DNA of 58,846 nt from NCBI GenBank assembly GCA_002633005.1, contig NMRA01000158.1, forward strand, positions 1 through 58,846, given 5' to 3'. Made by a program: the position numbers and the translations under genes. The DNA comes from Phoronis australis. Lineage: Eukaryota; Animalia; Phoronida. Positions 5,475-57,541 of the stretch are shown here, in pieces (the stretch's first letter is position 1; every line of letters starts with the position of its first letter). Under the pieces are notes generated by a model that saw nothing but the letters and a program-made list of their open reading frames with translations, was not told the DNA's origin and searched no databases.

Positions 5475-6407
5475 TAGGCAATGACCATCGTCTCTGTTTG
5501 CCCGACCAGAGGCGATGCAGCTCCTATAGGCGCTCCATACCCCGGAAGCTTTTCGGTGAATTATGCCTCGCACCGACTAAAACATCAAAGTCACGTTGTT
5601 ATAAATACCTTTTGCGCATAGAGGAACACCTTAGGAGGTTGTCGATGTGTTTAATTCCTTCCAACTTGAACAAATACTCCCGTTATCAAATTTTTTCTTC
5701 GAGCAGTCCCTATTTCAGTTCCCAAAATCGTGAATTAAACATTTTCACTCGGCGCACGCCAAGAGATATGACCTCATTCTTTTAACCAGGCCGAAGGTCA
5801 GAAGTTGCGGTCCTACCGGCGAACTTTGAAAGCTGAAGTCCCCGCCCTTTGCCTACGTGCTGCCGGGAACCAGTCGTGCATTTGCCGTTTTGTTAAACAT
5901 TAAAATGTCAAAATGTGTGCACAAAGACTATTAAATGTCATATCAACAGCATTTATTTTTATCAAATACAAACACTAATTCATTGAAATACAATCAGCTT
6001 CAAGTAACGCCATTTAAAGACGAGTAGTGGTAGCATTTTGGAAACGAACATTTGACTGACAAGACCGCAATGGCTCACCTTTGGCCTATTTAAAGATTGA
6101 GTTCATTAAGTCACAATACCTAGGGAGCGCAGTATAAAATTGGCGAGTTCACGATTTTGGGAACCGAACGAGTGACTGCTCGAACAAAAAGTTCGATAAC
6201 GGAAGTATTTGTTCGAGTTGGAAGGAATTAAACACACCGCCAACCACTTAAGATGTTCCTCTATACGCAAAAGGTATTTATTACAACGTGACTTTCATGC
6301 TTTAGCAAGTGCGAGGCATAATTCGCCGAAAAGCTTCCGTAGTATGGAGTGCCTATAGGAGCTGCATCGCCTCTGGTCGGGCCAACAGAGGCGATGTTCA
6401 TTGCCTA
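5475..6407. mobile_element. Non-autonomous DNA transposon with ~260-bp diverged TIRs
   Basis: TAGGCAATGACCATCG...CCCAAAATCGTGAA (5475-~5734) is inverted at ~6148-6407 (...CATTGCCTA). Flanks GTACTCGGT and GTGACTCGGT look like a 9-10-bp TSD with one indel. Explains the similar spurious ORFs 5426-5785 and 6295-6513. Confidence 0.85.
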
Positions 6408-10200: not shown

Positions 10201-12444
10201 GGGTTATAAGATGTGCACAAGTTGAGACAGGGGTGTGCCATGAAATACGTCGAGTTTCTCCCTCTGCTGTTACCTAGAAGAGTAGTCCGGCGGTACTCTC
10301 GACTACCGGGTCGCCTGGTCTTTGAGTCTGCTTAAGACTATTCTACACCTTGAGGTCGGTAAAGTTAATGTGACGTAGATACTGTCATTATCATTGGATG
10401 AGAGTCAAAGAAAACTAAAAAAGTTACTTTTATATTGGCATTATATACTTTTGATGAGAAGCTCGGTCTCATGTGCTGCCACAAATCCCGCAGTCGTAAA
10501 ACGATATTAGCTTTCTGCCTTTTATAGTTTTTGTATTCCCAGGGTTTTAGGAGGTGTAATTTATCTTGAATAAGATGTGGCACAAGCAATAAGCTGCAGC
10601 CAAATGACCTGTTCGTCTGTGTCACTTCGCCTTGGTGACAGAGAGTGGCAAAATGGTGTTCTTGTTTTGACAAATCCTGAAAAGTGCAGCAAATTTCACT
10701 ATGAGGTTTTGTAAAAATACGGCACATTCCCCTTGGACGTGGTCCCCACCAACTGTGAATTTTCGGGTGTATTTACACAATAAACAAACATGCATGTGTT
10801 TACTTAGTCAACAGTTTAGAATGAGTGACACGACATTCACTAGGTGGTGCTAATAAGTGGGCGACTGACATCTCGGATCTGAACTGATTGAGAGCAGGAA
10901 ACAGGTCACCAAAATGGACCAGGGAAGTTCGTGTGATAAAGGACTCACTTGATTTATGTGAATGCAAGCATTGCTATGGAACAGCTAGTGAATTTCTAGT
11001 TCCCCGTTAAAAGGCTTGAGTTCAATAACTCTCGCCGCGATCAAAATGTCAAACTCACTCGTGTGCAGCCGTGCTCTCATTGGAAATACACTGCGATATC
11101 TCGCGGAATCTCGAGAGATCTTAGCAAGATCCTTTCGTTGATTTCACGTGCACGTGCCGCGTTATTAGAAACGCCAATGAAGATTTATTTTCAGTTGTTA
11201 GATGTGTATGAACTGCTTAGAAATTGAAGGTTCGTATTTTGCATTGGAAATTCTTAGGTTTTCTTTAATAGGACTCACAGGTTATGTGCAAGACACTGAC
11301 AACCGAAGACAAAACAAAGAAAGCGAGAATATTTAATTGAGGAGGCATTGTGGCCTAGTGTGATTGATGCTCGCCTTCTTCACTCGAGGTCGTGGGTTCG
11401 AGTCCACCTGGGCCACACTGCTAGACTCTTGAGTCAGGTTTCTAGCTCCTCAACTGGGTTCAACTGCAAGTACATTAATAGAGCACGAAAATAGTTCCAG
11501 GTGATTAGTGCAACGGGCCCACATGTGCAGCCTGCGCACATCGGGTACAAAGTGTACCAGACGGCCTGCAATTATTTTTAACAATATTTAATTACTGCGA
11601 AAACATGTTAGCAAGAGATGTTGAAACTCCTATCATGACTCAGTAAACTTTTGTTTTAGATAGAAGACGAGCATCAGAAGCAGACATTAATACAGCAGGA
11701 AACGAGAACGTTGAAGGTGCTTTTCATTGCATTTTCTTATAATTCTGTCATAACACGCATTTCTCTTCTGTTAGAAACCTTCTTACCCTCGGGTTCGCCC
11801 AAACCTCACTCGGGGTCCCAACGACACCAACAATAACAGAATCCGAATGTGATACTGTATGTTAATGTACCATTCCTGTCCTTATTTTAATGTTTTATTT
11901 AGTGGATTAGTTAACATAAGAATTGCGAATGGGATGCTATTGGCTTCAATTGAATTGTGAACCATGTATCAAAAAGGGCATGTGTCTGATGCCTGAGTTG
12001 CATCGGTTGTGCGCGGACCACGTAAATAAATCGTGTCCATAGCACGAAAAGCCGAACCCTGTTACATGTATGTGTATATAGTCGTCATCAGGCTCTTCTT
12101 GAGAGATTTTACAGAAGTCCGTTGCCATGTAAGCACATTCTTGTGATGTTGACGCCACTTCTGCTCTTGCGTGTTTGCCCATCACACGTAACCCTCTGCC
12201 CTGCAAAGTGACCATGTATTCGATAGAGTTCTAATTAATGTATCGCCACACTACTTAGAGAGACATTGCTCGCAGACCAACCGAACACTTCTCATTGCAG
12301 AACAGGAACGCAGCTCGATTGACAAGATTAAAGAAACAGATAACTGTATACAGAACAAGGAACCGTCAGCTGGACGAACAGATAGCGAGTATAAGCAACG
12401 AAGCACGAATGTGGGAAAGAAAACTTGCCATTGACATCTCCTAG
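7275..12444 (+). CDS. CCDC122: Coiled-coil domain-containing protein 122-like, ~275 aa, 9 exons
   Basis: Exons 7275-7347, 7663-7814 (alternative in-frame acceptor at 7735), 8111-8126, 8333-8446, 8764-8845, 9232-9305, 10027-10142, 11660-11716, 12301-12444 give an 828-nt open frame ending in TAG. The C-terminus IEDEHQKQTLIQQETRTLKNRNAARLTRLKKQITVYRTRNRQLDEQIASISNEARMWERKL resembles the CCDC122 C-terminus as I recall it (LEEEK..[26 protein letters not shown]...RQW). Heptad composition throughout. The 5' exon and start codon are less certain. Confidence 0.8.
7418..7519. mobile_element. Small MITE in CCDC122 intron 1
   Basis: CATGGGCGGCGCA...TGCGCCGCCCATG TIRs; flanks TACAT/TACGT (5 bp, one mismatch). 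N join at 7473 with local duplication of the G/C runs. Confidence 0.7.
8980..9105. repeat. Degenerate (CAT/CGT)n microsatellite-like tract
   Basis: CATCATCATTATCAT...CATCATCAACATCG in a CCDC122 intron. Explains the Ile/Val-rich spurious ORF 8953-9144. Confidence 0.6.
11340..11570 (+). mobile_element. tRNA-derived SINE
   Basis: A-box-like TGGCCTAGTGTG and B-box GGTTCGAGTCC, followed by a non-tRNA body (CTAGACTCTTGAGTCAGGTTTCTAGCTCCTCA). A diverged copy lies on the minus strand at ~52430-52580. Confidence 0.8.
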
Positions 12445-13777
12445 TAGCACATGTAGGCTATACTTGTTGTTGTAACTGAGTTCAAGTTATTAAGTATTTG
12501 TGGCATGGCTTACGAGCTTGTGTCATATGGTATTGATCAACTATTACTCACAACTTGAGATTGGTACTGTGCTCAAGGAGTAAGCGCGAGATAATGAACA
12601 ATTCTAATGCAGAATACATTTTCCCAAAACTTGCTGAATTGTCACATTTTCTGTTTTCCTGGACCCGTAGAGTTATTCTTGTTTACAGGCTGAGAGAAAG
12701 TAGCGCGCATACATGTACTTATTGTAGAACAACAGACAGGAAATGCAGAACACTACTGGAACTATTTAATGTACCATGTCGCTTTGTGCAAATAAATTGT
12801 ACTGAAAAAAAAAAACATTGAATGGCATTAAACCCGCAGCTTCGTCAAAACGTTTAACTAAATCCCTTATCAAGTCAGGGGTGTTCTAGGCCTGTGTTTT
12901 ATTACAACCTGTTCCAAGGGAAGCAATTCTGAACAAAGTCATTTTCACACCTGATCAGCAGCTTTTAAACGTTGACTTCACCGGACCAGTACAGCATTTT
13001 ATCTCTTTCACGTACACGCGGTCATCGTCTTTCTTCCAATTACTTTGAACACGTGCAGCCCTAGCTACACTGTCCCTCTTTCATACGGAAATAAAAAAGT
13101 CANCTTGCCATTGACATCTCCTAGTAGCACATGTAGGCTATACTTGTTGTTGTAACTGAGTTCAAGTTATTAAGTATTTGTGGCATGGCTTACGAGCTTG
13201 TGTCATATGGTATTGATCAACTATTACAACTTGAGATTGGTACTGTGCTCAAGGAGTAAGCGCGAGATAATGAACAATTCTAATGCAGAATACATTTTCC
13301 CAAAACTTGCTGAAGTGTCACATTTTCTGTTTTCCTGGACCCGTAGAGTTATTCTTGTTTACAGGCTGAGAGAAAGTAGCGCGCATACATGTTCTTATTG
13401 TAGAACAACAGACAGGAAATGCAGAACACTACTGGAACTATTTAATGTACCATGTCACTTTGTGCAAATAAATTGTACTGAAAAAAAAACATTGAATGGC
13501 ATTAAACCCGCAGCTTCGCCAAAAACGTTTAACTAAATCCCTTATCAAGTCAGGGTTGCTCTAGGTCTGTGTTTTATTACAACCTGTTCCAAGGGAAGCA
13601 ATTCTGAACAAAGCCATTTTCACACCTGATCAGCAGCTTTTACATGTTGACTTCACCGGACCAGTGCTGCATTTTATCTCTTTCACGTACACGCGGTCAT
13701 CGTCTTTCTTCCAATTACTTTGAACACGTGCAGCCCTAGCTACACTGTCCCTCTTTCATACGGAAAGAAAAAAGTCA
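12424..13777. repeat. Apparent tandem duplication (12424-13102 / 13104-13777) across a single N; probable allelic contig overlap
   Basis: Two ~675-bp copies of the CCDC122 stop/3'UTR region differ by a few SNPs and indels and abut exactly at N13103. Confidence 0.85.
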
Positions 13778-16345: not shown

Positions 16346-16910
16346 AACCTTCATACGCCCATAATATTAGCTACATGTATCATGGTTGTGCTGCAGGTTA
16401 ACTGACGACCCACGTGTACTTGACCCACAGATTGTCCCGAGAGATCGTCTTTAAAACAAGTCATTTTGTCGCGGTCAAGCAATGTAGTTGTACTAGTCAT
16501 GTGTTTAATTACACTGTAAACAGTTGCAAACTCATTGGACTGATCTTTAGTCCGAAAATACATTCGTTTTCACTGTAATTCTAGAGGTTTTGCGCCTATG
16601 TCATTCAGGTAACCAGCACGCCGATAGGCCTCCTTTCTAGCAGAGCGCCGTAATAAGAATTTCAACGAAGTCAATTTCAAAAACTCGATCGCGTATATTA
16701 AATAAATGCAACAATCGCCTTATTGACGGACTCTGACATTTTGCTCAAAACTTATGAAACTGAAAAATTGATATTTGAACTTGGGAACAGTACACTGATT
16801 TCAAAAGTTGGCTGCAACGTATTGCGATGACATAAAAATGAAATACTTCTAAGACTCTTCATTATAAATCTGACTCTCAGGTATACCCAGATGGGTACCG
16901 CCATAATTAA

Positions 16911-19031
16911 CTTAGATTTCGGCGGTCAACCATCAACTATGATAAAGCACTTGAAATAAACAAAATTTTCACATCTTAGTTCACAAAAATGGGCCAAAAT
17001 AAAAAAATGAACTAAAAACTTAACATTACATACTTCATGGCCAACGTTTTTCCTATTTAAGACTGTCAAAGTGTTCCGTAAAGTTGCATGCTTACGTGAT
17101 CGCATAGATTAATCTGAAGCTTGCCCGCTGCTTTTATCAAGCCTCTGTTCCATGTCTAAACGTTCTTGACGGTACCTCGCACCCGATTTTTCGTCACCTG
17201 CATCCGTATAGGCGATAGCAATGTTATGCAAGCTCGCTACTATTTTGGGATGGTCCTTGCCACCGAATAGCCTCTTTCTCATATTTAACGCCTCCTGATG
17301 TAACTCGATTGCCTTGTCGTATTGCTGGAATCGCCTGTGAATTATTGCTAAGTAGCTTAGACAGGACGCAAAGTCCTCATCATCTCTACTGCCAATTAGT
17401 CTCCTTTTCATATTCAAAAACTCCTGGTTGTGTAAGAATGCTTCATCGAACCTTCCCGTTTCCATGCACAGCTCCGCCACTTTAAACAAAGACATTACTA
17501 TGTCAGAGTCATTGTTACGCAATCTCTTCTTCATAAACAATGAATTTTTATGGTTTTCCAGAGCCTCGTCTAATCGTTCTTTATCGATCAGTATTTCTCC
17601 AATATTAAAATATGTTAAAGCGATGTACGGGTGATCAGCGCCCTTCATACACCGTTCCATCATAGCCAGAGCCTCCTTGAATGCCAGGAGCGCTGTATCA
17701 TATTCCTCCTTTTCTTTATGCACACACCCGATATTTATCAACACCGCCACTATGCCAGGGTGATCATCGCTGCTATTGCAGGACGACAAAATCCTCTTGA
17801 ACATATCTAAGGACTCCTTGAGATATGTCACTGCTTTATTCAAGTCACCAATTTTTCTGTACAGGTTTCCAATGTTTGATAAAACTTCTGCTGTGCCTTT
17901 GTGATCCTGACCGTTCAGCAGTCTCCTATCCATGTCTAATGAGTGTCTGTGGTACATGAGAGCGGTCTTTNCTTGGATTTCGGCGGTCAACCATCAACTA
18001 TGACAAAGCACTTGAAATAAACACAATTTTCACATCTTAGTTCACAAAAATGGGCCAAAATAAAGAAATGAACTAAAAACTTAACATTACATACTTCGTG
18101 GTCAACGTTTTTCCTATTTAAGACTGTCAAAGTGTTCCGTAAAGTTGCATGCTTACGTGATCACATAGATTAATCTGAAGCTTGCCCGCTGCTTTTATCA
18201 AGCCTCTGTTCCATGTCTAAACGTTCTTGACGGTACCTCGCACTCGATTTTTCGTCACCTGCATCCGCATAGGCGATAGCAATGTTATGCAAGCTCGCTA
18301 CTATTTTGGGATGGTCCTTGCCACCGAATAGCCTCTTTCTCATATTCAACGCCTCCAGATGTAACTCGATTGCCTTGTCGTATTGCTGGAATCGCCTGTG
18401 AATTATTGCTAAGTAGCTTAGACAGGACGCAAAGTCCTCATCATCTCTACTGCCAATTAGTTTCCTTTTCATATTCAAAAACTCCTGGTTGTATAAGAAC
18501 GCTTCATCGAACCTTCCCGTTTCCATGCACAGCTCCGCCATTTTAAACAAAGACATTACGATGTCAGAGTCATTGTTACGCAATCTCTTCTTCATAAACA
18601 ATGAATTTTTATGGTTTTCCAGAGCCTCGTCTAATCGTTCCTTATCGATCAGTATTTCTCCAATATTAAAATATGTTAAAGCGATGTACGGGTGATCAGC
18701 GCCCTTCATACACCGTTCCATCATAGCCAGAGCCTCCTTGAATGCCAGGAGCGCTGTATCATATTCCTCCTTTTCTTTATGCACACACCCGATATTTATC
18801 AACACCGCCACTATGCCAGGGTGATCATCGCTGCTATTGCAGGACGACAAAATCCTCTTGAACATATCTAACGACTCCTTGAGATATGTCACTGCTTTAT
18901 TCAAGTCATCAATTTTTCTGTACAGGTTTCCAATGTTTGATAAAACTTCTGCTGTGCCTTTGTGATCCTGACCGTTCAGCAGTCTCCTATCCATGTCTAA
19001 TGAGTGTCTGTGGTACATGAGAGCGGTCTTT
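16911..19031. repeat. Apparent tandem duplication (16911-17970 / 17972-19031) across a single N; probable allelic contig overlap
   Basis: Two 1060-bp copies abut at N17971. Within the coding part I count 12 substitutions in ~860 bp. Confidence 0.85.
17109..17970 (-). other. Second (probably allelic) copy of the 3' ~286 codons of the NTase-TPR gene
   Basis: ORF 17109-17990 matches the C-terminus of ORF 18170-19921 except for 7 residues. It begins at the N join and has no real start of its own. Confidence 0.8.
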
Positions 19032-21331
19032 AAATCGCCTAATCGGCTGTAGATAGCGGCGGCGTTGTTCATGCTCGCTGATACGACCGGATGATCCCCA
19101 TTTCCGTGCAAGATTTGCGCCATGTCCAGCGCTCTCAGGTGCCACTCTAAAGATTTTTCATTCTGACCCATGTGGGCAAGTGCTTCACCTAATCCAACAA
19201 GACTGTCTAATACATCCGGGTGATTTGCCCCGTCATGAGCCCATTCTACAATATTTAATGCCTCCATGTGGCATCTTAGTGCCTCACCTGCTGTTCCCAT
19301 ATCGCAGTATACTGCTCCAATGTAATTGAGACTCACTGCCAAGTCACGGTGTCTTTCGCTACCATGCATTCGTAATCTTTGATGGTAGGCTTTCGTAAAG
19401 AACTCAAGAGCTGTATCCAGCTTGCCAAGGGTAAGGTAGTTACTTGCCACTTGGTCTAAATTCTGTGCAACTAAACTGTCTGAAGGTTCAACATCTGTTC
19501 TTTCAAGAATGTCTTTCAGTGTTAAAGAATACGACAATGCTTGATGCAGTTGACCCTCGCTAGAATATGTGGTGGCTATATTGAACATACATTGGCGAGT
19601 CTTCTCGTCTGTTTCAATGTAAAAGATTTCACGATCGTCAAAAAGTAACTTCTTGACAAGTGTTTCGTCATCAACATTTCTGAAACGCTTTTCAATGTGT
19701 GAGACAAAATGTTCCCGCGCCTTCTTGTACAAGCAGAGGTTAATTTCGATAAGGCCAGTCACAAACTCGTTGCTGTCGTAAAAGGATCCTGGAATTTTAT
19801 TTGAAGTGAAAACAGCGTATGCACCTTTGGCCTGTAAGGATATAATTAGTGGTAGCATGGTGTAATAATACCTGAACACCAAACTACGGTTCTCAAGATA
19901 GACAACTGGTCTCGAGTCCACTTATGTTGACTTTGAGCTGGGAGACAACAGACTCATGGATTCTTCTTGGTAATGTTTCCTTGAATAAATGGATAGTCTG
20001 AGGAGTGATACAATAGACACCACACAGTCCAAATTGTGAACCGCCTGATCTGTGAGTATACCTGCTTTTCCCATTTCTTCTAAAACAGCCCATGTACTGT
20101 TACTATTTAAAGAGTACAAGGTTTTGAACAAACAGATAATTAAGCTAGGAAGTCTGAACAACCCTTGTTTGATGTCGTGAACCGTGTTGGCATACTTGTG
20201 AAAATTTGTCTTAGGAAAGAAATCTTGAATGAGCTCCAAGATTTCATCGAACGCTTTCGCCTTGACATTTTCATTGCTTTTGACTTCTCTCCTGGCTGAA
20301 ATGAAATCGTCTACAAGCTTATCTGCGCCACTGCTTCCACCAATCTTTACAACAGAGGTCATGATACGATCAATGTTATAACCTTCTTTTAGCGCGGTGT
20401 TATATTCACACAGCTGAGCCATACGTTGTGGAGTCCGGATCAGTTCACGACCTTCCTTCGTTGGCCTGTCCGGTCGACCTAGAGGTGTGTTACACGCGTA
20501 TGGTGCTGCGCTGTCGAACTGGAACCCACGTGGTGCGACGCTGTCTGTGAACCAGTTTGCACCTGGTTTGTCATAATCGTTCAGCGATTTGATGGCTAGC
20601 GATTTCAGCAGAGTTTCTTGGATATTTAATACGAACAAATGGACCAGCCTTGCTAAATTTCTGAAATAATCTTTGCCATTTGACTCATCTTCTACAAGAA
20701 TAGCCCATTCGATATCGGAAAAAGGTGTCGTATCACCTCTTGCTAATGACCCTAGTCCTATTGCCGCATATTCTTGAGGAGGTGCGCCAAGGATCTGTTC
20801 ACTTTCGGTGATTAAATGACGAACTAAATCAACTATTTCGGCAGTTAAGTCAACAAAAAGGTGCTTAATCTTAGCAGTAAATTCTTTTTCTGTCAAAATA
20901 CGTTCAGAATCACTACTTTCTAGATTATATCTGGACTGCATTTCTTTCAATAAGTCACTTGCTCTCTCGCTAAACTCATTTCTCAATTTACTCAATTTTT
21001 GCTTTATATCACTCCGGAAATCTTCGGGCAGTTTTGTTGGTGATATTGATAAAACCTTACAAAATGCCATTTCCGCTTGCCGTAATTGATTTCCAAGCGC
21101 TTCCATTAAAGCAGGGTTATTTGTTCTCAACATCGCTGCGTTTGCGAGTGCCGAGGATTTCACAAAGTTGTCCACGTCTTTCGTCAGCAGACCACGTTCA
21201 CAATAGACCTCTCCCATCTCTTTTAGTATCCTAGCATCCCTCTCCAGTTCATCACGTGATCCGTTTTTTAAGATGTCAGCCAGTTTTTCTTCTTTTGCAT
21301 CTAGTGTTGCAAGACGTTCATCTGAAACCAT
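18170..21331 (-). CDS. Nucleotidyltransferase (GlnD/GlnE/DUF294-like, pol-beta fold) - TPR array protein, ~1053 codons, interrupted by one in-frame TAA (19924-19922)
   Basis: ORFs 19922-21331 and 18170-19921 abut in the same frame (TCA ACA TAA GTG GAC). NTase motif AAIGLGSLARGDTTPFSDIEWAILVE fits hG[GS]x9-13Dh[DE]h (~20695-20767). Helical partner domain DIKQGLFRLP...TWAVLEEMGKAGIL...AVHNL...LLRL follows. About 11 KLC/NPHP3-type 42-43-aa TPRs (HRDLAVSLNYIG, HPDVLDSLVGLG, HPVVSASMNNAA, HPYIALTYFNIG, HPKIVASLHNIA). No coding introns. Confidence 0.9.
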
Positions 21332-21380
21332 AACAACAATTTATTAATTTTCAATTAAAACCAATGGTGATCCTTTTCCT

Positions 21381-23203
21381 CTGATAATGAAATTTAATGA
21401 AACAACAGTCGCGTGTCGTTTAAGTCTCTCATTAACATGTAAAATTCGATTGGTAAGAATATCCTCAGATAAAAATGAGTGGTGCCACTTCGAATCGACT
21501 CTGATGTGCATGAGACCATATAAGGGGATTTCATTTACGGCGCTGTTGTTTTTCCAATATAAATGTGGGGCAGTTGGCGGCTCGTGAACTCCCGGTGAAA
21601 AATAAGTGAAAGTAAGTCGAGTTTTGTAATTAGCATTGGTTTACGTCGAAAGAATATCACTTCATCTCTTCAGTTAGGGATATGTCCATATTACAAGAGA
21701 TTGATATAGAACGCCATGCATTTGTTGTTGGTTCAAAGAGTAGACCTAGGTCCCCGGCTGACGACAGAGTTTAGCTTGAGGCCCTTGCTAATGCAATATG
21801 AATAAGTTAAATTTGCATTCATTCAGTTTAAGTGCACAAACAGCGAAAACAGAATTAAATATTTTAGTGGTATCAAAACTGGTATTATAATAGTGTGTTT
21901 ACGCTACCGTAAACTACTCAAGAAAATACTTCAGAGTTTGTCAGGGTTGGCCAACCCTAAAGTCGCGAAATCGAAAATGATGCATAAAGACTACACATTG
22001 ACTGTGACTTGGCTTGGTACATGTAGCAGAGGTGAAATGCTGTCACGGTAAGCAATCTTACGAGACCAGTAAAGGCCAGCTGAAAAGGGTGAAATGTAAG
22101 TTTGACCTTGTTTTCAGGACACTGAGAAATTAGCTCTATAATTCCTGAACTCTTTGGAGATGCTACATTTAAATTACTCATTTATGACGTGACAAGTCGT
22201 GTTCTTTGTCAGCACCGAGAGCCTACTTACTGTAAGGGAAATGTGGTCTATGAGCACATAGAGCATTTCACGTAAATCAGCTCCCAGTTCATAGTAATCA
22301 CGTTCAAATGGTGCTTCTTTTAAGTTGCTCGCTGCATTTGCAGTAGACGTAGAAATGGGAAGCTTCACTTTGAAAATAGTGCCATTGGGTATTGTGCAAG
22401 GCCTTTGAAGAGTGATACAATCTATTCTTCATATTTTTAGGTTTTGTACACCCTGTGGCTGAGATGGGTGGAGGTGCATGGACCTGTTTTTTCAAGTCCA
22501 AAGCCGCAAAACCTGTTTCGTGGTATGCCATCAACGTTGCATGCTCACCGTAATCTGTTGACTTGCGCTGCAGCGACACGTAGTTAACACCAGTCCGTTC
22601 ACTCTCAGTGTTGACACTGAGTTGTTCGATGACGAAATCCATGAGTCACTTGAAACCTTGAAATATAATTCGAAAGAAGCGCTTACTGTTTTTGTGAAAA
22701 TAACTTTAATTGTGAAGTATCCGACGTGTCTATGGACGTAAGTGTGAACGGAGGGCTCCTTCCCCGCTGGGCAAACCTGACGTGAGTGTACATAGTTATA
22801 GGCCAATGGCGAAAACGCTAGTGATGCCATCGATAAAGCGTTAGTTTTACTCCCCAAAATTCATGACGTTTTCACTAGCAATCTTATTGCCAGAAACCGC
22901 TTACTGAATGCATGGGCAGGCGAAGGAGGTCTATATTCATCGTTTCGCTATTGAAGAAAACGAACGTCCTTTGACGCTAATTTTTGCTAGAGCAATTGAC
23001 AGCACATCGGTCTGCATATAAAGCCAACATATATATATATATTCTCCACTGATAAACTGCTACTAGTGTTTGCTTTATCAGATGCCAACGAACACAATGA
23101 AGCTTTTTATATACCTCGCAGACAATGTTTTAATATATACATGTGTTACAATTATTATGCCCTCCTCTCTAAAAAAACCCAGGGCGTCATGATGCATGCT
23201 TAC
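21381..23203 (-). other. Candidate 5'UTR intron of the NTase-TPR gene
   Basis: Strong minus-strand donor CTGAG|GTAAGC at 23204/23203. Acceptor TTTCATTATCAG| at 21381/21380, 49 nt upstream of the ATG. Confidence 0.4.
21957..22700 (-). pseudogene. Frameshifted coding-like remnant of unknown origin (possibly transposon-derived)
   Basis: Overlapping same-strand ORFs 22304-22642, 22174-22368 and 21957-22181 chain through apparent frameshifts with protein-like composition. No motif recognised. Confidence 0.3.
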
Positions 23204-28449: not shown

Positions 28450-29550
28450 ACATATTAACTACAACCAAATAGCTGTGTACCAATCTCTTTAATCTCAGGT
28501 ATTCTTTCAATAAAGTTCGTATTCGTCATACTATCCAATTGAGTGTCAAAATCCACCCCCAAAAATCTAAACGATTTTTTGTCCAAGACAGACTATTATA
28601 TCGGAATCACTTCATTACTACCATTTTTAATCCAAACCATATGGCTTTTGTTTTATCCACATTCACTTGGAGAATGTATTACATTCAATGTGTTAGTCAA
28701 TGACAAATTTGACCCATCCAACGTAAGTGATGTGTCGTCCGCATATTGCGAAATCAAATATTCTTTATTTCCTGCAACTACACCAGCAATATTTTTATTA
28801 TTCTTGATTAAATACGCCAAAATCTTCGCGCACAATATGAAAATGATCGATGACAAAGGATCACCTTGTCTGCATCCACGCGAAATATTGAACCAGGAAG
28901 ATGGGTGACCATTTACGACAACACAGGACATAATATTACTGTAAAAGATTTTCACTCACCTTCTGATCGACCAACCAGAATTAAAGAAAGATAAAAAAGT
29001 TTTTTGAATAAAAGTCCACGACAATGAATGAAATGATTTTTCAAAATCAATCAGTAAAAGCAATCCTGGTTTGTTAGCTGCCTGGGCATAAAACATTAAA
29101 TCATAGAACTCGCGGATATATTCATCCATATTTCTTCCAGAAACAAAAACCTGTCTGGTGTTTACTGATTAGTTTTCCCAAAACAGATTTTAACCGTTCA
29201 GCCACAGCCGAAGAAGGCAATTTGTATGTCCCATTGAGTAAGGATATGGGCCCCCAGTTTTTCAAAAATGTTTACTTCTATCTGCTCCCTTAGGGATGCA
29301 GGTAATCACTCCCTCTTTCTCTGTTGATGATAATTGGCCAACAGCAAAACCAGTATGAAGTAAGCGAACAACGAAATGTCCAATGTGAGTCCAAAAAAAT
29401 AAAAAAATTCCACTGAAAAACTGTCCCGAGCCTGGGATGTTGTTTTTCATTTTTTTCAAGCATTGACCTTCATATGTAAGAGGACCTTCTAATTTTTGTT
29501 TTTCTGTTTGGAGACACAAACCTTCAAGAGTTTCTAAAGCAGTATTACGA
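28450..29550 (-). mobile_element. L1/Tx1-clade LINE reverse transcriptase region (decayed)
   Basis: RGCRQGDPLS.IIFILCA.IL...I...KNIAG.....EYLISQYADDT and GVITCIPKG motifs. Same orientation as 25440-26340, so probably one element split by a ~2-kb insertion. Confidence 0.88.
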
Positions 29551-29771
29551 TGACATTCCGCCCAGTCGTTTATTCACACGAATTCTTGACCTGAACTTGT
29601 AGGAAAGTTTTGACGACCTAGTGCCATCACCATAAGCGAGGGAGGGTAGGTGAACCCCTTAGCTTCAAAATGTGCGTAACGCGCAGCACTGCAACCGTCT
29701 TTTGCGCCCTCTGGCTGTTTTGGTGTATTGGAGGTGCAGCCGTCTTTGTTGAATGAACTGTGTCTTCTTCT

Positions 29772-32100
29772 GCCTTTATTTGTACACATGGCCATCGGCC
29801 CAAAGTACAACAAACAAGCAAACAAGATCATTGGAGTACTATGCACACTAGTCAGTAATGCTCAAGCTGTTCCGTTTTTTAGATGCGTAGCATGCATATT
29901 TCACCACTGAGATATCGGGATTACATAATAGTCTATGAAATTTAAACAAAGAGGGACTTGTCCAGAGGCTCTCACTCTGATTTCGGAAAACGCGTCGCAA
30001 ACTAACAAAAAGTGATATTCATCCTCGACACAATTCCTCCAGCATCAATGTACACACTCTGTCTTGATATATCACATTTACATGACGACCAGTTTCTACT
30101 GCCAGTCTGGGACTTGCACATCGAAAACGTGTAAAACTTTGCACGAACACTCTTGGAAGATTTTCAATTTCTAAATAGTTTTCATGTTTAAATACAACCT
30201 TAAAATTTTTGTAATAGTTTAACTTAGAATTGGAATCAACATCGGACTGCCATCTTTGCAAAGCACAGTCCTTAACCCGTTGTAAGAAAATATTTACAAA
30301 CGACTCTTGACACAAGACTCCTTGGTTTACCCAAACATCATGGAAACCATACATTGACAATAAATTGCGAACTGAGCTTGCCCAATTATACATACGTCTA
30401 CCATTTTCATCTAGTCTCTACAACATGTTGTAAGCGGCCCTTGGATAACGTTCCTGTGGCATATTCAAAATTTTAAACCAGTATTTAATACAGCTAACAA
30501 AGTGTCTCGTAAACATACTATTATGGTATCTGCAACATTCACCGAATACTGCAGCGTTAGAGCAAGAACTGCCAAGTCCCAGGAACCATTTACAATTTTT
30601 TTAATTCTTTAAAACCCCAAATCTCTGCACCATAACACAATGTTGGGTACACCAGTTTATCAAATAACTGAAAGGCAAGTGATGGAGGCATATCGCGACA
30701 TCTGTAGTTTCAAAACACGTGACGCAGCATTATTTGCTTGACAAGAAAGAGTTTTTGTCGCTTTCGACCATGACAATTTTGTGTGATAAAAATACTAAGA
30801 TACTTATAATGAGATACAGTATCAACTTGCTGTTTGTTAAAAAATATTTCTCATAGTGTCTTAAGGGACCTACATTTCTAAATACAGTTATTTTGGTTTT
30901 CTTTAAATTCACTGCTATACCCCATGAACCACAATAATCATTGAGACAATTCAACATTCGTTGCAAGTTAAACGCTGTTAGAGAGCACAAAACCATGTCA
31001 TCTGCATATAATAATGAATTAATGTTTGCAGTATGCTCATCTAAGTAGATGCTATTTATATCACAACGTTAATTGAGTTTTCTAAAAACTCATTGAGATA
31101 CAAAAAATAGTAGAAGGCTTATCATACAGCCTTGCCGAGTTCCAGTAGTGCCATTAAAAGGGTCTGTTAAGCCATCACGTGTTTTAACACATGATCTCAA
31201 CTTGCTTTACATTGATCACAGAATTGATAACATATTGCCATGAAAATTAATTTGCATAAGTCTATGAAAAAGTAAGATATGTGGCACTCGATCAAAAGCT
31301 TTTGAAAAGTCAATAAATGCACAATAGAACCTGCCACCCCTTTTGCTTATGTGTTTCTGACATATCGCATACAAAGAAAATATATGATCAACAGTCGCGT
31401 AACCCTTGCGGAACCCTGCTTGGGCTTCAAACAGTTGACCGATACTTTCGGCACAGTTATGCAATCGGTTATTCAGTATTCTGGTAAAGACCTTCCCAAA
31501 AGCCGACAGAAGCGAAATACCTCTATAATTATTATCATCGTCCACGTTACCTTGTTTAAACAACGAAATTAACATCGCATCACACCAAGCCTGGGGATAG
31601 AAACCTGACTCGAGAATTACATTGAATAATTTATGCAGAATCGACGAAATGAATGTTTTGGTACATTTTAACATTTCAAAAGTAACTCAATCAATACCAG
31701 TGACCTTGGCATATGGAAGCTGATTGATATTCTGGATAATTTCATAACACGAAATGTCTGTATTTAAATCATGTTGTATGTTGTGGGTACACTTTTCACA
31801 GCAGTTGTCATGACTAGTTTGCCTATTGACGATAGTATTCATGAGTAAATCGCTAACAGGCACTTCTTTGTTTAACAGACTCTTAAAATAAGCATGCCAT
31901 TTTTGTGGTGTAATAGACGTGGCTGTGCACCTCGAAGGTTGCGTACTAAATTTGATCATTTTCCAAAATTCTTTGGGTTGTTCCTATTCTTGGAAATACT
32001 TTCTAGTAACTGAGCTTCATAATTTTTCTCTTTTTGTCTATACAAGTCACGGAATTGTTTTCTTTTTAATTTATAATTATCCATGTCAATGAACTGTGTT
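29772..32100 (-). mobile_element. RTE-X-like LINE, 5'-truncated and decayed
   Basis: NNYRGISLLSAFGKVFTRILNNRL, QAGFRKGY.TVDHIF, FIDFSKAFDRV and LYADD motifs; C-terminal RFRCASPRLAVETGRH; 3' end GGGCCGATGGCC...AATAAA at ~29775-29802. Confidence 0.88.
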
Positions 32101-33180: not shown

Positions 33181-35757
33181 ATGACATCTCTGTTTACATA
33201 TATTTATTTTCTATTGAGTGGGATCCTTAAAGGTAAGTGTAGCTTAAATACGTTCATTTGTCATAAGGAAATCTGTAACAGTGCTTCAAATCAAAATCCG
33301 ACGCGCTATTGCGGTATAACCACTAACAGACTGTTGCGTTGACGGCGACTGCAACAGAACCAGGGCAGTGGCGGATCTAGGATACCATAAGGGGGGGGCA
33401 ACATGTTGCCTCGGGGAATTGGAAAAGCGCGATTGTAGATTGTATAAGCACAGGCCAGGGGCGGATCCAGAATTTTGAGTTAGGTGGCCAGGGCAGCATA
33501 TTAGCCAGGATTTTGTCCGTCAGACATTCGCACCTCCGAACTGCCCAATGGAATCTGGGAGAATTTTAAGGGGGCCATGGCCCCCTTGGCGCCCCTCTAA
33601 ATCCGCCACTGCAGGCCGCTTGAAAGTTGCGGGGCCGGATATGTGAACCTTCTGTTCGGAAAATGCATCGTTGGACTAAAAAAACGGAACTCGATTCCGC
33701 AGCGATCTGAGCCCCCCCATCCGCTACGTTTCTGGCAATCAGTAATTCCTCTCGCTTCACTCTGTTGCTGTTTCAGTTTGCTTCCGGCAGCCAGGGGGGC
33801 GGGCTCCCCGACCCCCATAAATCCGCTTATGCAGGGGCCCATTTCATGAGACTTTCAAGTCTTAGATCTAAATCGGACTAATAGAAGACCAAAATTCCTC
33901 AACCCTGTTTCATGAAATTTCCCAACATGAGTTATATATTGTGTTTGCTTTAAACGGGCAAGTATTGACTTACGCTTGGCACACGTAGGTTTCTAGGGAG
34001 GCTATAGCCAGCCACCTTGTTGTATGAATACCATCGTCAAAATACAGCTGGTTACCACTGTGTGTTTTTATTCCATAGACCCCGAAATTGCACACAGCCA
34101 CAGTTGTTTTGCTCGTCGACTCGCCGTGAAACCTGTATCAGCATGTAGAGCTGAAGACGACCGGACGGGATGCATGCAAAATCTGGGAATCAAACGACCC
34201 TCACCCTGCCTGTTACAGCCGTTTAAATGAAAAACAATCTAAAAACGTCACTTTCTTGCGTAATCATTTCTAACAGTAGCAAAATTTCTAATGAAGTTCG
34301 GTTTTTCGGTATCAAAATTCTAAAAACTTATAATGAAGTGAAACCAGTTCCAATACTTTGTTGTGACGTGTACGCAACCTCGTGAAAGAACAACATTTGA
34401 TTGAAGAATCGGCGAAAAAAGAAACTGGCCAATAGGTGACGCAATATTTCATGGAGCCGAAAGCCGACGCAGAAGATTGCTCCACAACACTTTAGCAGCA
34501 GAATAACGGTTGAACGCCATTTTTTCCAAAAACAGAAAATACTTTTGTTTACTCAAACAGTTGTGCAGTTTTTAATGACACTAATTTTGTGTCATATTTT
34601 CTCTGATCGTTTTACCCACATCAGCGCAAAGCTGTATATTGAGTATACAACATTGTTCCAAGGATACACACAGTGGTATATAAGCTTCATACAGCCAGTC
34701 GTTTACAGAGCTGAGTATTGGCTGGCAGCTGGCTGGTTGGCTAGAGTCCATACTGCCCACAATCACACCAGTGTAAGTTGTTGATACGGACTGGTTGCAC
34801 GGGCAAATTTTCGTTTGACGATGACGACGTCTGGGTATCACTTTGTGTTGTTTTGGCTAAAACAGGTATGCTTTGTGACACGACATTCCACACTAAAATT
34901 TGAAGAACGCCACTTGATTGCACGCTAACTGAGTAGGACACTGACTTTACTCCCCCCACCACCAAATACGCCACTAGAAGCTAGAAGCAGCGCTCCAAGT
35001 GCATGATTTTTGACTTACGTTAGAGAATATCACTTTACTTTTGAATTATCAGTGAAATTAATTTACAACTCATAGAAAACTATTCAAAATTTGTTCAGAA
35101 TAAAATAGAGTTCCCTTTTAAGTTCTTTGGCTACAGACTGCGTTCACGATTTCCAAGGGATTACACCTGACTGATCGTTTAATTTCAGTGGAAGTAGACA
35201 GCTTTCAACAAAAAATTAAGTATGCAACACAATAATCGTTAGCTTTTACAAAATAGACTGTGTGGATTGATATGTCAAATGCTTTGCTGTCTTGCATTTG
35301 GCTCACAATAGCTACAGTAGGAACCAATGCGTCTGCATGGCATACATTGTTCAATTGTCTATAAATTCCTCCTCTTTTGCTTTTTCAGATGTTGCAATTT
35401 CTGCCCTTCGTGTGACTGCAACTGATGAAGTCGTCGGTGTCAGCGGTGGAAATGCTACATTTAGGATTAGTATTGTTGTGGAAAGTGGTGAACACCTATA
35501 CTTTATCCAACTGGTTAAAATCTCAACAGATAGTGAAATATTTAACACTTATTACATTGGTCCACAGGGTCCAAGTTCGTTTGACGGAGCTTTTCACGTT
35601 AACTATTCATCTCGTGCTTCAACTGACTATTCTGCTGGAAAAACCGACTTCACAATCACTTTGTCACAGCTTACTTCTGATGATGAAGGACAGTACAAAG
35701 TGAATGTTCGTGGCAATGTGGGCATGAAATCTTCATATACCCGGCTTGTTGTAGACT
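33181..35757 (+). CDS. Signal peptide + V-type immunoglobulin domain protein (first two coding exons)
   Basis: Exon 33181-33232 MTSLFTYIYFLLSGILK (donor AAG|GTAAGT, phase 1) joins the phase-1/1 exon 35389-35757 (TTTTTCAG acceptor, CT|GTAAGT donor): DVAISA^LRVTATDEVVGVSGGNATFRI...DFTITLSQLTSDDEGQYKVNV...YTRLVVD. This is a V-set strand pattern. Confidence 0.8.
33366..33831. mobile_element. MITE family B with a family A MITE nested inside (33456-33611)
   Basis: Outer TSD CAGGG (33361-33365, 33832-33836). Inner element reversed, with TSD CAGGC (33451-33455, 33612-33616). Confidence 0.9.
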
Positions 35758-36724
35758 GTAAGTAGTGTTTTGGTGACATGGCTATGGTAATTTGTCGTTT
35801 ATTTTGCGTCAAAAATAATTGCCAAGATTGTCATTTTTCAATTTTGCAAAGGCTGATGAACTTGCTTTAAATATTAGAAATAGAACCAAATATTATTTTA
35901 TGACATCTGTACAGAACAAAAAGTTAATAACTGACTATGATTGGTTGATGAATTTGAGAAATTGATCTGTTTGTCTGCCATATTATGTGCTAAATAAATG
36001 AAGACTTAACATATTTGCTACAGAATGGAACCTGTAGTTAACTTTAAAAGCGATACCTTGCGTGTTTATTGTGGAAAAAAAACATTTTAGAGACCCACCG
36101 CATAGAAATTTGTCTACTACTTTTTGAATCTTCCGCCAGGCACAGAGCAGCTCCGTATGTACCCACAGTCCTTTCATTAACTGAGTGGCTATAATATTGG
36201 GTAGACTAGGAGTGCATGGAGCATAGAAAGATGCCGTTGAAAACGTTGAAGACAAAATTGTAGCTTTGATCCTGAGACAGTTCTTTGCGTCTGCGTGCAC
36301 ACGGTCGTTGAGAACGAATGCACCAAGTCCGAGTCTCCGCCCGGCAGGTTTATTTTTCAAGAACATAGCAAGTTGTGAAAATAGGTATATCCTCACAAAA
36401 CTTCATTGATTTCATCGTTTATTTGACGTTTCTCTGCTTCCATCACGAATCCATTTCGCGTTTTCACCACCGTCTCGATTTTTATTGTCTATTTTGTTTT
36501 TGGTTTCTAGATATCAGTCTCTATGGCGCGTACTTCATCTGTTGCGTATCGCAATGAACTATTGACCTACTTACTGCTGACTCCGCCTTTGACCTAGGTT
36601 GACTCGATTTACTGAAGTCTGACCATAGACTATAGTACATAATCTATGGTCTGGCTTGCAAATTGACCTATCGCAAGCTCCGCCCCTATGCGAAAAGTCA
36701 CGTGATACCAGACATTCGAACAAG

Positions 36725-50774: not shown

Positions 50775-51460
50775 ACGTTTCGTCAGGATCATATTTACAA
50801 CAATTTAGGACAACAAGTGCCAACATACAGCTCAGGTAACATCCATAGAGTGAAGTGAGAGATACATAGAATATGGTCAGTAGCTGGTCATCACCATAGC
50901 TGCAGGGTTACATAGCTCTGCATGTTATTCAGAGAATCAGTGGCATGCTGGTTCTGAATGGCCAATGACTCTTTAATGTACAGTAACTCCTTATTGAGTT
51001 CTCTGCAGATAATACTAACAGAGTTGGCTTGGTGACTGTAGCTAATACAATGCCTATGTATGTTACTTATCTCTGAGGTGTGATGTTCTTTCAATCTGTC
51101 ACAGAGGCGTCTCTGTGCGAGTCCTATATAGAATTCCTTACAGTTGTCACATTCAACCTTATACACAACATTGCTCTTGTTCAATAAAGGGATGGGTGAC
51201 TTCAGTTTACACAGCATATTGGAAAGTTTCCGAAGGGGTTTGAAAACAACTATCAGTTCAACTGCTGGGTCTATGCAATGAATAAAGCGAGATAATTGGC
51301 GTTTCAATTTTATACTACTTGGCCCGGTGTAACCAAGAGAAAAGAAAACTTTCTTTTTCTCGGGTCCAATAACAGCTGTCTTATCTGCCTCACTCATTTT
51401 TGAAAGAAAGTTCCTTTTACAGCTATTCAGAAAATCCAGAGGGTAACCATTGTCATGAGA
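50775..51460 (-). mobile_element. Penelope-like element 3' fragment (GIY-YIG endonuclease)
   Basis: NGYP upstream; ORF 50891-51397 has SNVVYKVECDNCKEFYIGLAQRRLCDRLKEH...LYIKESLAI...LN. CGAAACGTT hammerhead-like relic at ~50774-50782. Confidence 0.88.
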
Positions 51461-53150: not shown

Positions 53151-53756
53151 TGGCTACGTTGCGTCCTCCTCTCGAAGACTTCATCAGGCCACTGAGTTGT
53201 CACGTGACTTGTCATGTAATCTGTCGTACAGTTTCCGCGGAATTCTCTTCAGCGCCCTATCCCATGTCCTAGGTAGGTGAAACCGCAGCCCCCCCCCCTG
53301 TCTATTGAGGCTAGTATTCTCAATTCTCTAGTAGATAGCTTCTTTGACCCCTCTCCGAAACCAATTCTCTTCTCTATCCAGGATCTTCACATCTTCCATG
53401 GCGAAAGAGTGGTCTGTGGAAGCCATGTGACTAAAAACTGCAGAATCATAGTAGTCCCCATAACTGGACCTCCGATGCTGGTTGAAACAACTTTTCAGGG
53501 CTTGTTTGGTTTCCCCAATGTATGCTGCTCCACACCCCGGTTCCGAGCATGAAGTTGTTAAATGTGAAAGACACACCAGAAGGAGTCAATTGTTAAATGT
53601 GAAAGACAAAACCAGCAAAGAGAAAACATCAAATGTGGTGTATGGCATTTCATGCTCGGAACCGTGGAGTGGAGCAGCATACATTGGGGAAACCAAACAA
53701 GCCCTGAAAAGTCGTTTCAAGCAGCATCGGAGGTCCAGTTATGGGGACTGCTATGA
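53151..53756. mobile_element. Penelope-like fragment with inverted GIY-YIG duplication and decayed hammerhead
   Basis: Minus-strand YIGETKQAL...DREENWFRRGVKEAIY and plus-strand SNVVYGISC...YIGETKQ. 53446-53553 is inverted at 53648-53756. Hammerhead-like core at 53151-53191. Confidence 0.85.
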
Positions 53757-56116: not shown

Positions 56117-57300
56117 CTGCAGTAGGACAGTGCTGGCTGGGTCAGTCTGGGTCAACTAGGCATAACCAAAATCAAGTGAACTGAAAGCCAGCCAGCTGCG
56201 TCTTTTCATTGGTGACCGAAGGAAACAACGGCATTCGAAAATCTCGAATAATTCAAAAGTAGACGTTGTAGCGCAAAATGGAAAATATCTTCTGAAAGCC
56301 CGTCCACAACTCTACGTACTTTGATAGAGCATACAATCAACTACAATAAAGAACAATAGATGGCGCAACATTACAGACGAGGCATGCTTTGCAGTAGGAC
56401 AGTGCTGGCTGGGTCAGTCTGGGTCAACTAGGCATAACCAAAACAAAGTGAGCTGAAAGCCAGCCAGCTGCGTTTGACCGAAGGAACAACGGTATCCGAA
56501 AATCTCAAATAATTCAAAAAGTAGACGTCGTAGCGCAAAATGGAAAATATCTCCTGAAAGCCCGTTCAAAACCTTATCTAAAGTGTTAGTTTGGCAAAAA
56601 TCCAAAAAATTTTCGAGAAAATTGAAAATTTGCCAATTTTTTTCAAATTCAAAGTCAAATAACTCGAAAACGGTAAGTCTGAGAAATACGCTCTCGCAGA
56701 CTTTTTGAAAGGCCATACTTTAAGGAATCCGCATGCAAAAATTCACGTCATTTGCTCTTCCCATAAAAAATGCGACACCAGAGCGATTGAAACCGTGTGA
56801 ACATGCCCCACAGCCGCCATCTTGAAAGTGATTTCCGGTTCAATATTTTTTTATAAAAGCTTATTAAACTCAACAAACACGTGACCAGTTTGAAAGTGAT
56901 TGGTTTACAAATGCGCCCTCTACAGGAGAAAACGTTTTTAGCCATATTTCGGGGTGCGCATGCGCCACGTCCAATATTTCCGCCATCTTGAACCGGAAGT
57001 CAACGATTTTCTGCACACTTGTAGCACATTTGTTCTAGTATATTCGTATTGATTTTCAGCCATGTAGGTCGAAAAATGCGGCCTTTACGAGCATTTGACT
57101 GTGAAATCGGATACAAAATGGCCGCCATGTCCGCCATTTTGTATCCAATCATGACGAAAAACAATAGGCTTCTAGGACTTCTAGATCTACACGTCGTGTA
57201 CAAATTTCGTGAAAATCAGACGAAAATTGCGACCTGTAGAGTGCGAACAAACAAAATGAAAGCGCTCTGAGGAGCGAAACTTGGCGAAATTAACCAAAAA
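56117..57300. mobile_element. Helentron/HINE-like non-autonomous element with a duplicated ~190-bp end (56117-56305 / 56389-56570)
   Basis: Typical motifs AAATAACTCGAAAACGG, GCAAAAATTCA, AAAATGGCCGCCATG and AAATTTCGTGAAAATC, followed by a (GAC/GAT)n tract. Confidence 0.55.
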
Positions 57301-57314
57301 ACACACGTTCGAGA

Positions 57315-57541
57315 GGACGAGAAAAGACGACGACAGAGATGATGACGATGATGACAGCTATGACGACGATGGTGGCGATAATGAACAACCCTAGTAGAAA
57401 TCACTAAGAAATAGGCTACAGTGTTGAGCGACACTTGGCGAAATTAATTGAAGAAAAGACAACGACGGAGATGATGACGAAGATGACGAATATGATGATG
57501 GTGGTGGCCATGATGAAGAACATCATAACATTCATATGACG
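57315..57541. repeat. (GAT/GAC)n low-complexity tract
   Basis: GACGACGACAGAGATGATGACGATGATGAC... in two blocks, ending at N57542. Confidence 0.8.

Follow-up and report, generated by a model that had tools for sequence, protein, structure and literature searches.

Does this locus in the phoronid Phoronis australis encode a working receptor-enzyme, in which a nucleotidyltransferase is fused to an array of TPRs? Such a protein had been proposed from one 3.16-kb frame without coding introns, located in the window (the whole stretch of DNA analyzed, 58,846 nucleotides of contig NMRA01000158.1). On the minus strand, the ATG at 21331 and the final stop at 18170-18172 do lie in one frame, and three RNA runs, of low depth, list no splice joints within the coding stretch. 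However, the frame is interrupted by a TAA at codon 470.

18170..21331, minus strand: whole gene body, one coding exon of 1053 codons plus the final stop, interrupted at codon 470
19922..19924, minus strand: in-frame TAA, codon 470, in a variable linker right after the helical domain
21381..21383, minus strand: candidate splice acceptor read from the sequence (CAG after a pyrimidine-rich stretch), 50 nt upstream of the ATG

The TAA divides the gene into two ORFs of 469 aa (nucleotidyltransferase part) and 583 aa (the part with 11 TPRs), and the fused receptor-enzyme thus cannot be made from this locus unless the stop is read through. Contigs of DNA runs X1, X2, and X3 span the codon with no alternative letter there; these runs derive from a single sample, perhaps the one from which the assembly was made, and the stop was read in that sample only. 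All three sets of contigs reproduce the TAA, which excludes a one-off error of the assembly. The alignment column at the stop is not conserved among homologs, and both flanks are collinear with intact homologs (amphioxus P0030 is collinear across the stop, 28% over 994 columns). Apart from codon 470, there is no frameshift and no second stop across the 1053 codons. An intron hiding the stop was considered and rejected, as the frame-keeping GT-AG stretch is only 21 nt, which is too short, and no joint is listed.

Transcription is weak, although RNA reads cover both halves of the gene, and the stranded RNA came from three samples other than the DNA sample. One read in X6 and two in X7 cross the stop, below the listing threshold and with the letter not resolvable. 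RNA depth is zero at 21384-21765 with no joint listed, and the sequence upstream of the ATG may possibly contain a 5'-UTR intron. We consider the locus likely to be a weakly transcribed nonsense allele or a young pseudogene.

Alternatively, the stop could be a sequencing artefact, or the gene a bacterial contaminant. The single coding exon, the bacterial relatives, and the redundant contig ends in the assembly could be taken to hint at this, but the codon recurs in three DNA runs, the stranded RNA comes from three other samples, and the gene groups with animal rows in the tree. The window is also animal-type DNA, as originally supposed, with LINE RT fragments, a GIY-YIG fragment, and an Ig V-set exon on the same contig, and the GC content of the gene (42.5%) resembles that of the window (40.2%). 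We regard artefact or contamination as very improbable.

One of these redundant stretches borders the gene itself, and the original prediction had missed that the 3' third recurs across a single-N join.

16911..17970, minus strand: second-haplotype copy of the gene's 3' third and flank, next to the N at 17971 that joins two contigs; redundant in the assembly

Positions 16911-17970 and 17972-19031 are 98.2% identical. Tandem duplication was rejected here: in an X1 contig that extends into 16800-16910, all 12 listed sites show the letter of the other copy, which indicates an allelic overlap and not a second gene. In the TPR part, the haplotypes differ by seven non-synonymous and five synonymous changes in 287 codons. 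The X1 contig bearing the stop and the window disagree at 19118, where RNA run X5 has the letter of X1; more than one haplotype may therefore carry the stop.

The first ORF encodes the enzyme part.

21053..21322, minus strand: N-terminal four-helix TPR-like cap, aa 4-93, in the model, with TPR-like structural matches over aa 1-103
20279..21019, minus strand: pol-beta nucleotidyltransferase core of DUF294/DrrA/GlnE type, aa 105-351, from profile, model, and structural matches
20705..20758, minus strand: catalytic motif GLGSLARGDTTPFSDIEW, aa 192-209 (G194-S195...D206-x-E208), from homolog conservation
20513..20515, minus strand: D273, likely third metal-binding acid, in PRGFQFDS (aa 267-274), D in 149 of 150 homologs
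20489..20491, minus strand: N281, the family position for a near-invariant lysine, K in 143 of 150 homologs
19952..20272, minus strand: helical GlnE/DUF294_C-type (HEPN-like) domain, aa 354-460, in the model and as the second DrrA-matching stretch by profile

The motifs first noticed by eye (GLGSLARGDTTPFSDIEW, PRGFQFDS, DIKQG, and LLRL) are all present, and the acids D206, E208, and D273, on whose conservation the original prediction hinged, are near-invariant in 150 homologs (G194 150/150, S195 147/150, D206 146/149, E208 147/149). In the G-S...D-x-[DE] motif, the first D lies 12 residues from the G, as in DrrA G98...D110-X-D112 (numbering from PMC7815794). D273 follows a short strand (271-272) in the model, and E239 is equally conserved; D273 may be the equivalent of DrrA D150 (GlnE D753). 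Conserved residues also mark the cap, which is common to most top homologs (E14, L21, Y43, L62, A66, and R69), and the helical domain (K388, R393, R445, and Y449). A HEPN RNase role for the latter was rejected, because R445 is not followed by a conserved histidine and a published list gives this HEPN subgroup as devoid of the RNase motif (PMC3710099).

Structure prediction bears out what was anticipated from the letters, a pol-beta fold joined to a helical domain of GlnE type. The 469-aa product is modeled as a complete unit (pLDDT 92, pTM 0.92), and its structural matches are led by DrrA 6yx5 (Z 23.1, rmsd 3.6, 288 aligned), followed by GlnE 1v4a (Z 21.2) and 3k7d (Z 20.2), the three spanning 283-288 residues. 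A DrrA fragment (Z 11.4) comes after these, and the next unrelated structure has Z 10.4. All four Foldseek matches at E<=0.001 are GlnE and DrrA chains. In the PDB, DrrA is the family profile's sole match at E<0.001 (4.7e-8, 3.1e-4), and a single-sequence search gives nothing significant. The DUF294 profile matches the core above its cut-off (E=6.9e-7), and identity to DrrA is 13%. The enzyme part is thus predicted to have the DrrA/GlnE fold. No viral structure matches at E<=0.001, PADLOC returns weak motif-level and TPR matches only, and cGAS, OAS, and Mab21 are absent among the listed fold matches, beyond which unlisted families may exist.

As the closest solved protein is the AMPylase domain of DrrA/SidM, followed by GlnE, protein AMPylation is favored over the synthesis of a signal nucleotide, which narrows the earlier suggestion of AMPylation/UMPylation or signal-nucleotide synthesis to its first part. 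Relatives of DrrA/GlnE type add AMP to proteins or remove it, according to the available part of a review (PMC8097203), and the fold is also used for deAMPylation and, more distantly, antibiotic modification. On the basis of fold, intact members would carry out Mg-dependent transfer of NMP, most likely AMP, from an NTP to a protein hydroxyl. It is nevertheless conceivable, if unlikely, that their product is instead a nucleotide second messenger, or that what they modify is RNA or a small molecule. cGAS, OAS, and aminoglycoside transferases all have pol-beta folds, kanamycin nucleotidyltransferase is a weak match (E 0.06 by structure, E 1 by profile), the Pfam DUF294 label assigns no substrate, and fusions with CARD, Death, and IRF would suit a signaling role; the strong structural and profile matches, however, are to protein-modifying enzymes only.

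The P. australis copy itself departs from its family. In a more balanced homolog set, with six very distant rows dropped, it differs at six of 30 conserved columns, where the median is 1 and 4 of 58 rows reach six; K281N and C186Q are among these differences. Position 281 holds K or R in 56 of the 57 relatives in the more balanced set. An earlier test on a set skewed by amphioxus paralogs gave 12 of 55 columns against a median of 3, with as many in 4 of 139 rows. Most of the departures are conservative substitutions, and some are to be expected on a long tree branch (1.65). With the stop and the loss of K281, the proposed fused receptor-enzyme is not supported for this locus.

Could the stop instead be functional or tolerated, yielding an enzyme of 469 aa devoid of TPRs, whether or not read-through, or re-initiation at Met 492 (the next Met downstream), supplies the TPR part? 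The stop falls directly after the helical domain and leaves a product that models as complete, both halves are represented in RNA, no other lesion is present, homologs P0036, P0104, and P0013 end in the same linker, and more than one haplotype may be involved. Against this, K281 is lost, the short homologs may be partial gene models, and the differences between haplotypes in the TPR part are too few to show constraint. The context ACA-TAA-GTG is not known to be a read-through signal. We judge a functional stop to be rather improbable and continue to favor a nonsense allele or young pseudogene.

Downstream of the stop, the array of about 11 TPRs that had been counted by eye is confirmed.

19619..19921, minus strand: helical connector, aa 471-571, with the family's LFRYYY-type motif, from the read-through model and alignment
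18191..19618, minus strand: 11 TPRs of TPR_12/TPR_10 type, spacing 40-47 aa, mean mutual identity 28%

The TPRs run from aa 572 to the end, and read-through with X at codon 470 is modeled as one chain (pLDDT 91.3, pTM 0.88). By a repeat profile made here, homologs carry 0-23 repeats per protein, which are homogenised (>=55% identity) in 49 of 109; the P. australis copy, at 28%, is last among the 109. In those 49 homologs, TPR positions 2, 9, 12, and 13, which contact ligand (PMC1261162), are four of the five most variable columns. These positions vary in TPRs generally, and the pattern therefore shows a binding groove and not immunity. We infer that the TPRs may gate the enzyme.

How widely is this architecture distributed? 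A first word-based homolog search gave one match, and in a longer search seven among the 120 matches listed cover the enzyme, the rest being swamped by unrelated TPR proteins. By profile, 119 among the 120 matches listed carry a Branchiostoma name, and the family comprises 1,570 clusters at 50% identity (E<=0.001). The original prediction placed relatives in amphioxus, environmental chlamydiae, and other intracellular bacteria, and the searches found them there: named animal members come from amphioxus, the tunicates Ciona and Clavelina, the annelid Owenia, and the hemichordate Saccoglossus, and bacterial members from Ca. Jidaibacter, Parachlamydiaceae, and Holosporaceae (rickettsial, chlamydial, and holosporal), with 5-18 matches in each of five genomes. 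No vertebrate names occur among the matches looked up. TPRs are present in 29 of 30 and 26 of 32 hand-picked homologs, and DUF294_C is detected in some. Single members carry CARD, IRF, Roc-COR+Death, Roc-COR+GT4-conflict, NACHT+HEAT, or NB-ARC+TPR; these immune-type fusions are isolated cases among predicted gene models, possibly mis-joins.

In the tree, a quick and unrooted version with 31 unlabeled rows, one branch splits 12 named animal rows, P. australis included, from 21 bacterial rows (SH-aLRT 90, the branch itself being unstarred). None of 500 shuffles gave a split as low. It is possible that animals and intracellular bacteria came to share the family via one old transfer, in either direction, and that turnover by birth and death has since left broken copies such as that of P. 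australis.

Therefore, the reading that we hold to be somewhat more probable than its negation is that the locus is a broken copy of a large family, probably a nonsense allele or young pseudogene, whose intact members likely AMPylate proteins recognized by their TPRs, probably in defence. The TPR groove would bind a foreign or altered protein and thereby direct or switch on the enzyme, a step suggested by the repeat variation, the expansions, and the immune-type fusions. The family might instead be an ungated regulatory enzyme, with TPRs that merely recruit a fixed host substrate and no role in defence. Animal FICD, in the available part of a review, recognizes its substrate via TPRs (PMC8097203), but large lineage-specific expansions and 0-23 repeats per protein are unlike a housekeeping gene, as are groove-variable homogenised repeats, broken copies, and the lack of vertebrate names among the matches looked up; we hold this to be unlikely. 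Beyond the AMPylation of recognized proteins, we advance more tentatively, at somewhat short of even confidence, the broader view that marine invertebrates from annelids to chordates have expanded AMPylase receptors of DrrA type, which would join FICD and SelO as a third kind of AMPylase in animals, are shared through one old transfer with the effectors of intracellular bacteria, and have fast-evolving TPR grooves that sense pathogen proteins, with AMPylation as the immune output. If true, an animal family with a DrrA fold, intact metal ligands, and variable grooves would represent a new AMPylation writer and a candidate immune output. The P. australis copy, whose stop and lost lysine make it ill suited as a test object, mainly contributes one more animal lineage, a distant one, and an indication of turnover by birth and death.

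Among known systems, the N-terminal domain of Legionella DrrA/SidM (PDB 6yx5, 3nku; Pfam SidM_N) superposes with the P. australis enzyme in both the core and the helical domain. A ligand that binds at a distance from the active site activates DrrA (PMC7815794). The animal-encoded, broken copy lacks the Rab1 GEF and P4M domains, with a TPR cap and array instead; in the available part of a 2015 survey, DrrA-like proteins were described as very rare and confined to Legionella (PMC4454073). The AT/AR domains of GlnE (GS-ATase), GlnD, and DUF294/DUF294_C proteins are alike in fold, whereas the P. australis protein has one such domain with TPRs in place of regulatory domains. No full-length GlnD/GlnE NCBIfam model matches it at E<=0.01, and GlnD models reach 14-19 bits on three of six homologs against cut-offs of 519-1010.

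The DUF294-TPR architecture of bacteria is already in print, while no published description of the animal family was found in the literature searched. Neochlamydia NEX2 (50 proteins with F-box, optional OTU, DUF294, and C-terminal TPRs; PMC4209131, available in part and compared by described architecture) likewise places DUF294 before a TPR array in an expanded family. Most NEX2 members have an N-terminal F-box, and some an OTU; the P. australis protein has neither (no F-box at E<=1). The available text proposes interference with ubiquitination and contains no transferase activity assay. Fungal and invertebrate effector-plus-repeat receptors (e.g., PNP-NLR-TPR; bioRxiv 2023.01.24.525353) share an N-terminal enzyme, C-terminal TPRs, lineage-specific expansion, and, in some members, Roc-COR/Death/STAND partners. 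Their enzyme differs, and the P. australis protein and most animal relatives scanned have no central STAND ATPase: neither half of the P. australis protein has a NACHT/NB-ARC match in Pfam and the model leaves no room for one, whereas relatives P0172, L013, and L014 do carry a NACHT or NB-ARC ATPase. Finally, reviews available in part give FICD and SelO as the metazoan AMPylases and DrrA-type enzymes as bacterial (PMC8097203, PMC4454073, PMC12894286). FICD and SelO share the chemistry proposed here, and FICD also joins TPRs to its enzyme (PMC8097203, available part), but they are single-copy genes of the ER and mitochondria whose folds are unrelated to that of the P. australis enzyme.

The minus-strand frame running from 21331 to 18170 contains the motifs quoted in the original prediction and 11 TPRs, and its match to DUF294 exceeds the cut-off. 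However, it is not the single open frame then described, as codon 470 is TAA (19922-19924), which creates ORFs of 469 and 583 aa. This codon is unchanged in contigs from three DNA runs, all of one sample that is possibly the assembly's source. Two of these runs (X2 and X3) give one contig each across codon 470 at 80% likeness, and a second allele was not seen in such contigs, which lose rare variants. The stop lies within an unconserved linker and both of its flanks are collinear with an intact amphioxus protein; thus, the ancestor was an enzyme-TPR fusion. It is possible to regard the locus as a functional split, in which the stop leaves a working 469-aa product, given that the gene is transcribed, a second lesion is absent, and the 469 residues before the stop form a self-contained unit. 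However, of 30 conserved columns the gene departs from the family at 6, a count reached by 4 of 58 rows (median 1). Four of these departures are conservative; the exceptions are K281N and C186Q. The locus is judged far more likely to be a nonsense allele or young pseudogene than a functional split.

The pol-beta-type fold expected of the enzyme domain is supported by AlphaFold2 and Foldseek, with GlnE and DrrA as the strong matches. From 67-row alignments, AlphaFold2 gave a pLDDT of 92.0 for aa 1-469; with X in place of the stop, the full chain reached 91.3 (pTM 0.88). Foldseek returned four matches at E<=0.001, namely GlnE (3k7d twice, 1v4a) and DrrA (6yx5). A wide structural search placed DrrA at the top (Z 23.1, rmsd 3.6, 288 aligned), followed by GlnE (Z 21.2 and 20.2), a DrrA fragment (11.4) and TPR-like matches to aa 1-103, while the PDB matches to a 32-row domain profile at E<0.001 were limited to two sequences of DrrA. 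Pfam likewise gave a hint of SidM_N. G194, S195, D206, E208, and D273 are conserved in 146-150 of 149-150 homologs, and include the presumed metal-binding acids (D206, E208, and probably D273). The G194...D206-x-E208 spacing is the same as that of the DrrA motif G98...D110-X-D112 (PMC7815794). Because of these structural and profile matches and the DrrA-like spacing of conserved residues, we infer that protein AMPylation is the likeliest chemistry. Catalytic motifs are altered in two homologs, P0100 (Saccoglossus) and P0076, which are possible pseudo-enzymes.

TPRs occur in 29/30 and 26/32 homologs of two hand-picked sets. Single members carry CARD, IRF, Roc-COR with Death or GT4-conflict, ankyrins, a RickCE-like protease, NACHT with HEAT, or NB-ARC. 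In two loci (L013:4416-9491 and L014:3375-9674) and the homolog P0172, the same transferase stands at the head of proteins with NB-ARC+TPR or NACHT+HEAT, an arrangement resembling that of NLRs. A repeat scan found six or more repeats in 109 of 256 proteins; of these 109, the gene studied here has the most mutually divergent repeats. In the 49 of the 109 with >=55% internal identity, the columns varying most correspond, by alignment to a printed consensus TPR, to positions 13, 9, 12, 31, and 2; ligand contacts in solved TPR complexes fall at positions 2, 5, 6, 9, 12, and 13 (PMC1261162). This pattern shows a TPR groove that is diversifying, and is no proof of immunity as such.

Against 1.84 billion representatives, phmmer gave 1,570 matches at E<=0.001 and 330 at 1e-30. 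The best 150 share only 26-40% identity, and thus no close relative exists among the representatives searched. For 14 of 30 matches looked up, the cluster held a name: Branchiostoma (six), Owenia, Ciona, Clavelina, and Saccoglossus (one each), with Ca. Jidaibacter, Parachlamydiaceae, Holosporaceae, and one without organism as the remainder. Branchiostoma also accounts for 119 of 120 profile-search matches listed. One strict pattern picked up 18 prokaryote loci, which belong to records of chlamydiae, Midichloriaceae, Holosporaceae, unclassified gammaproteobacteria, and unclassified bacteria; five of five such genomes had 5-18 matches each, the highest count being that of a gammaproteobacterial genome. 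The Atlas agrees on this distribution, and the relatives that the original prediction placed in amphioxus and environmental chlamydiae do exist. In a quick 64-row tree (31 rows unlabelled, 4 removed for a missing anchor motif), a single unstarred branch (SH-aLRT 90) divides 12 named animal rows, including the gene, from 21 bacterial rows; this fits a family that may be shared by one old transfer, the tree giving no direction. Members bear database names such as 'Protein-PII uridylyltransferase N-terminal domain-containing', TTC28, and KLC1. Three homologs (P0003, P0004, and P0005, of which P0003 at least is from amphioxus) have three transferase motifs in tandem, and are real proteins or fused gene models.

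The gene (GC 42.5% vs 40.2% for the window) is accompanied by the following features; 5 of 13 frames scanned in the window gave a match.

28650-31990 and 50891-51460, minus strand: degraded remnants of LINE-type reverse transcriptases, together with part of a GIY-YIG domain
35271-35765, plus strand: Ig V-set-like exon of a neighbouring gene (E=1.6e-5)
1299-1750, 5475-6407, and 53446-53756: long inverted repeats, MITE-like, 78-88% identical
21381-21383, minus strand: candidate acceptor site for splicing, located 50 nt upstream of the start codon at the point where RNA coverage stops

Because 17972 to 39413 is without any N, the LINE fragments and the Ig exon lie on the gene's own contig, and the GIY-YIG fragment does not. 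Three RNA runs from samples other than the DNA sample, sampled at 18-19% of each run, placed 27, 28, and 57 reads on 16800-22500, part of which come from a repeat or paralogs. Those over the gene are all first-mate-plus, which in most stranded libraries denotes minus-strand RNA, and they cover the sequence before and after the stop alike at a depth of 0-4. The candidate acceptor makes a 5'-UTR intron possible. Loose ends seen by eye at 21146 and 21259 (DNA run X1, RNA run X7) encode peptides resembling the gene's, and one X1 contig has a joint within 20185-20475; together these suggest diverged paralogs, at least one of them transcribed.

A 98.2% repeat at 16911-17970 terminates at a single-N join. 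The X1 contig extending into the flank below 16911 has the other copy's letters at 12/12 listed sites, and the repeat is thus a second haplotype. Further near-identical pairs adjoin single-N joins at 12416-13777 and 55286-58451 (96.7% and 94.6%), and are probably haplotype overlaps like 16911-19031.

The animal family is real and DrrA/GlnE-related, and is represented here by a broken copy; the locus as it stands cannot make the proposed enzyme-TPR protein, for which the mechanism is one we infer. The family is apparently so far undescribed: no description was found in the literature searched (listings and abstract starts, most subscription papers lying outside the search). The literature covered also includes PMC3710099, PMC8097203, PMC4454073, PMC12894286, and bioRxiv 2023.01.24.525353. 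For bacterial TRADD-N proteins, PMC8195603 notes a pol-beta domain that it treats as novel, and that paper's domain-architecture tables could list the family. The bacterial DUF294-TPR architecture is already in print: as described in PMC4209131, Neochlamydia NEX2 combines DUF294 and TPRs as the gene does, but with an additional F-box.
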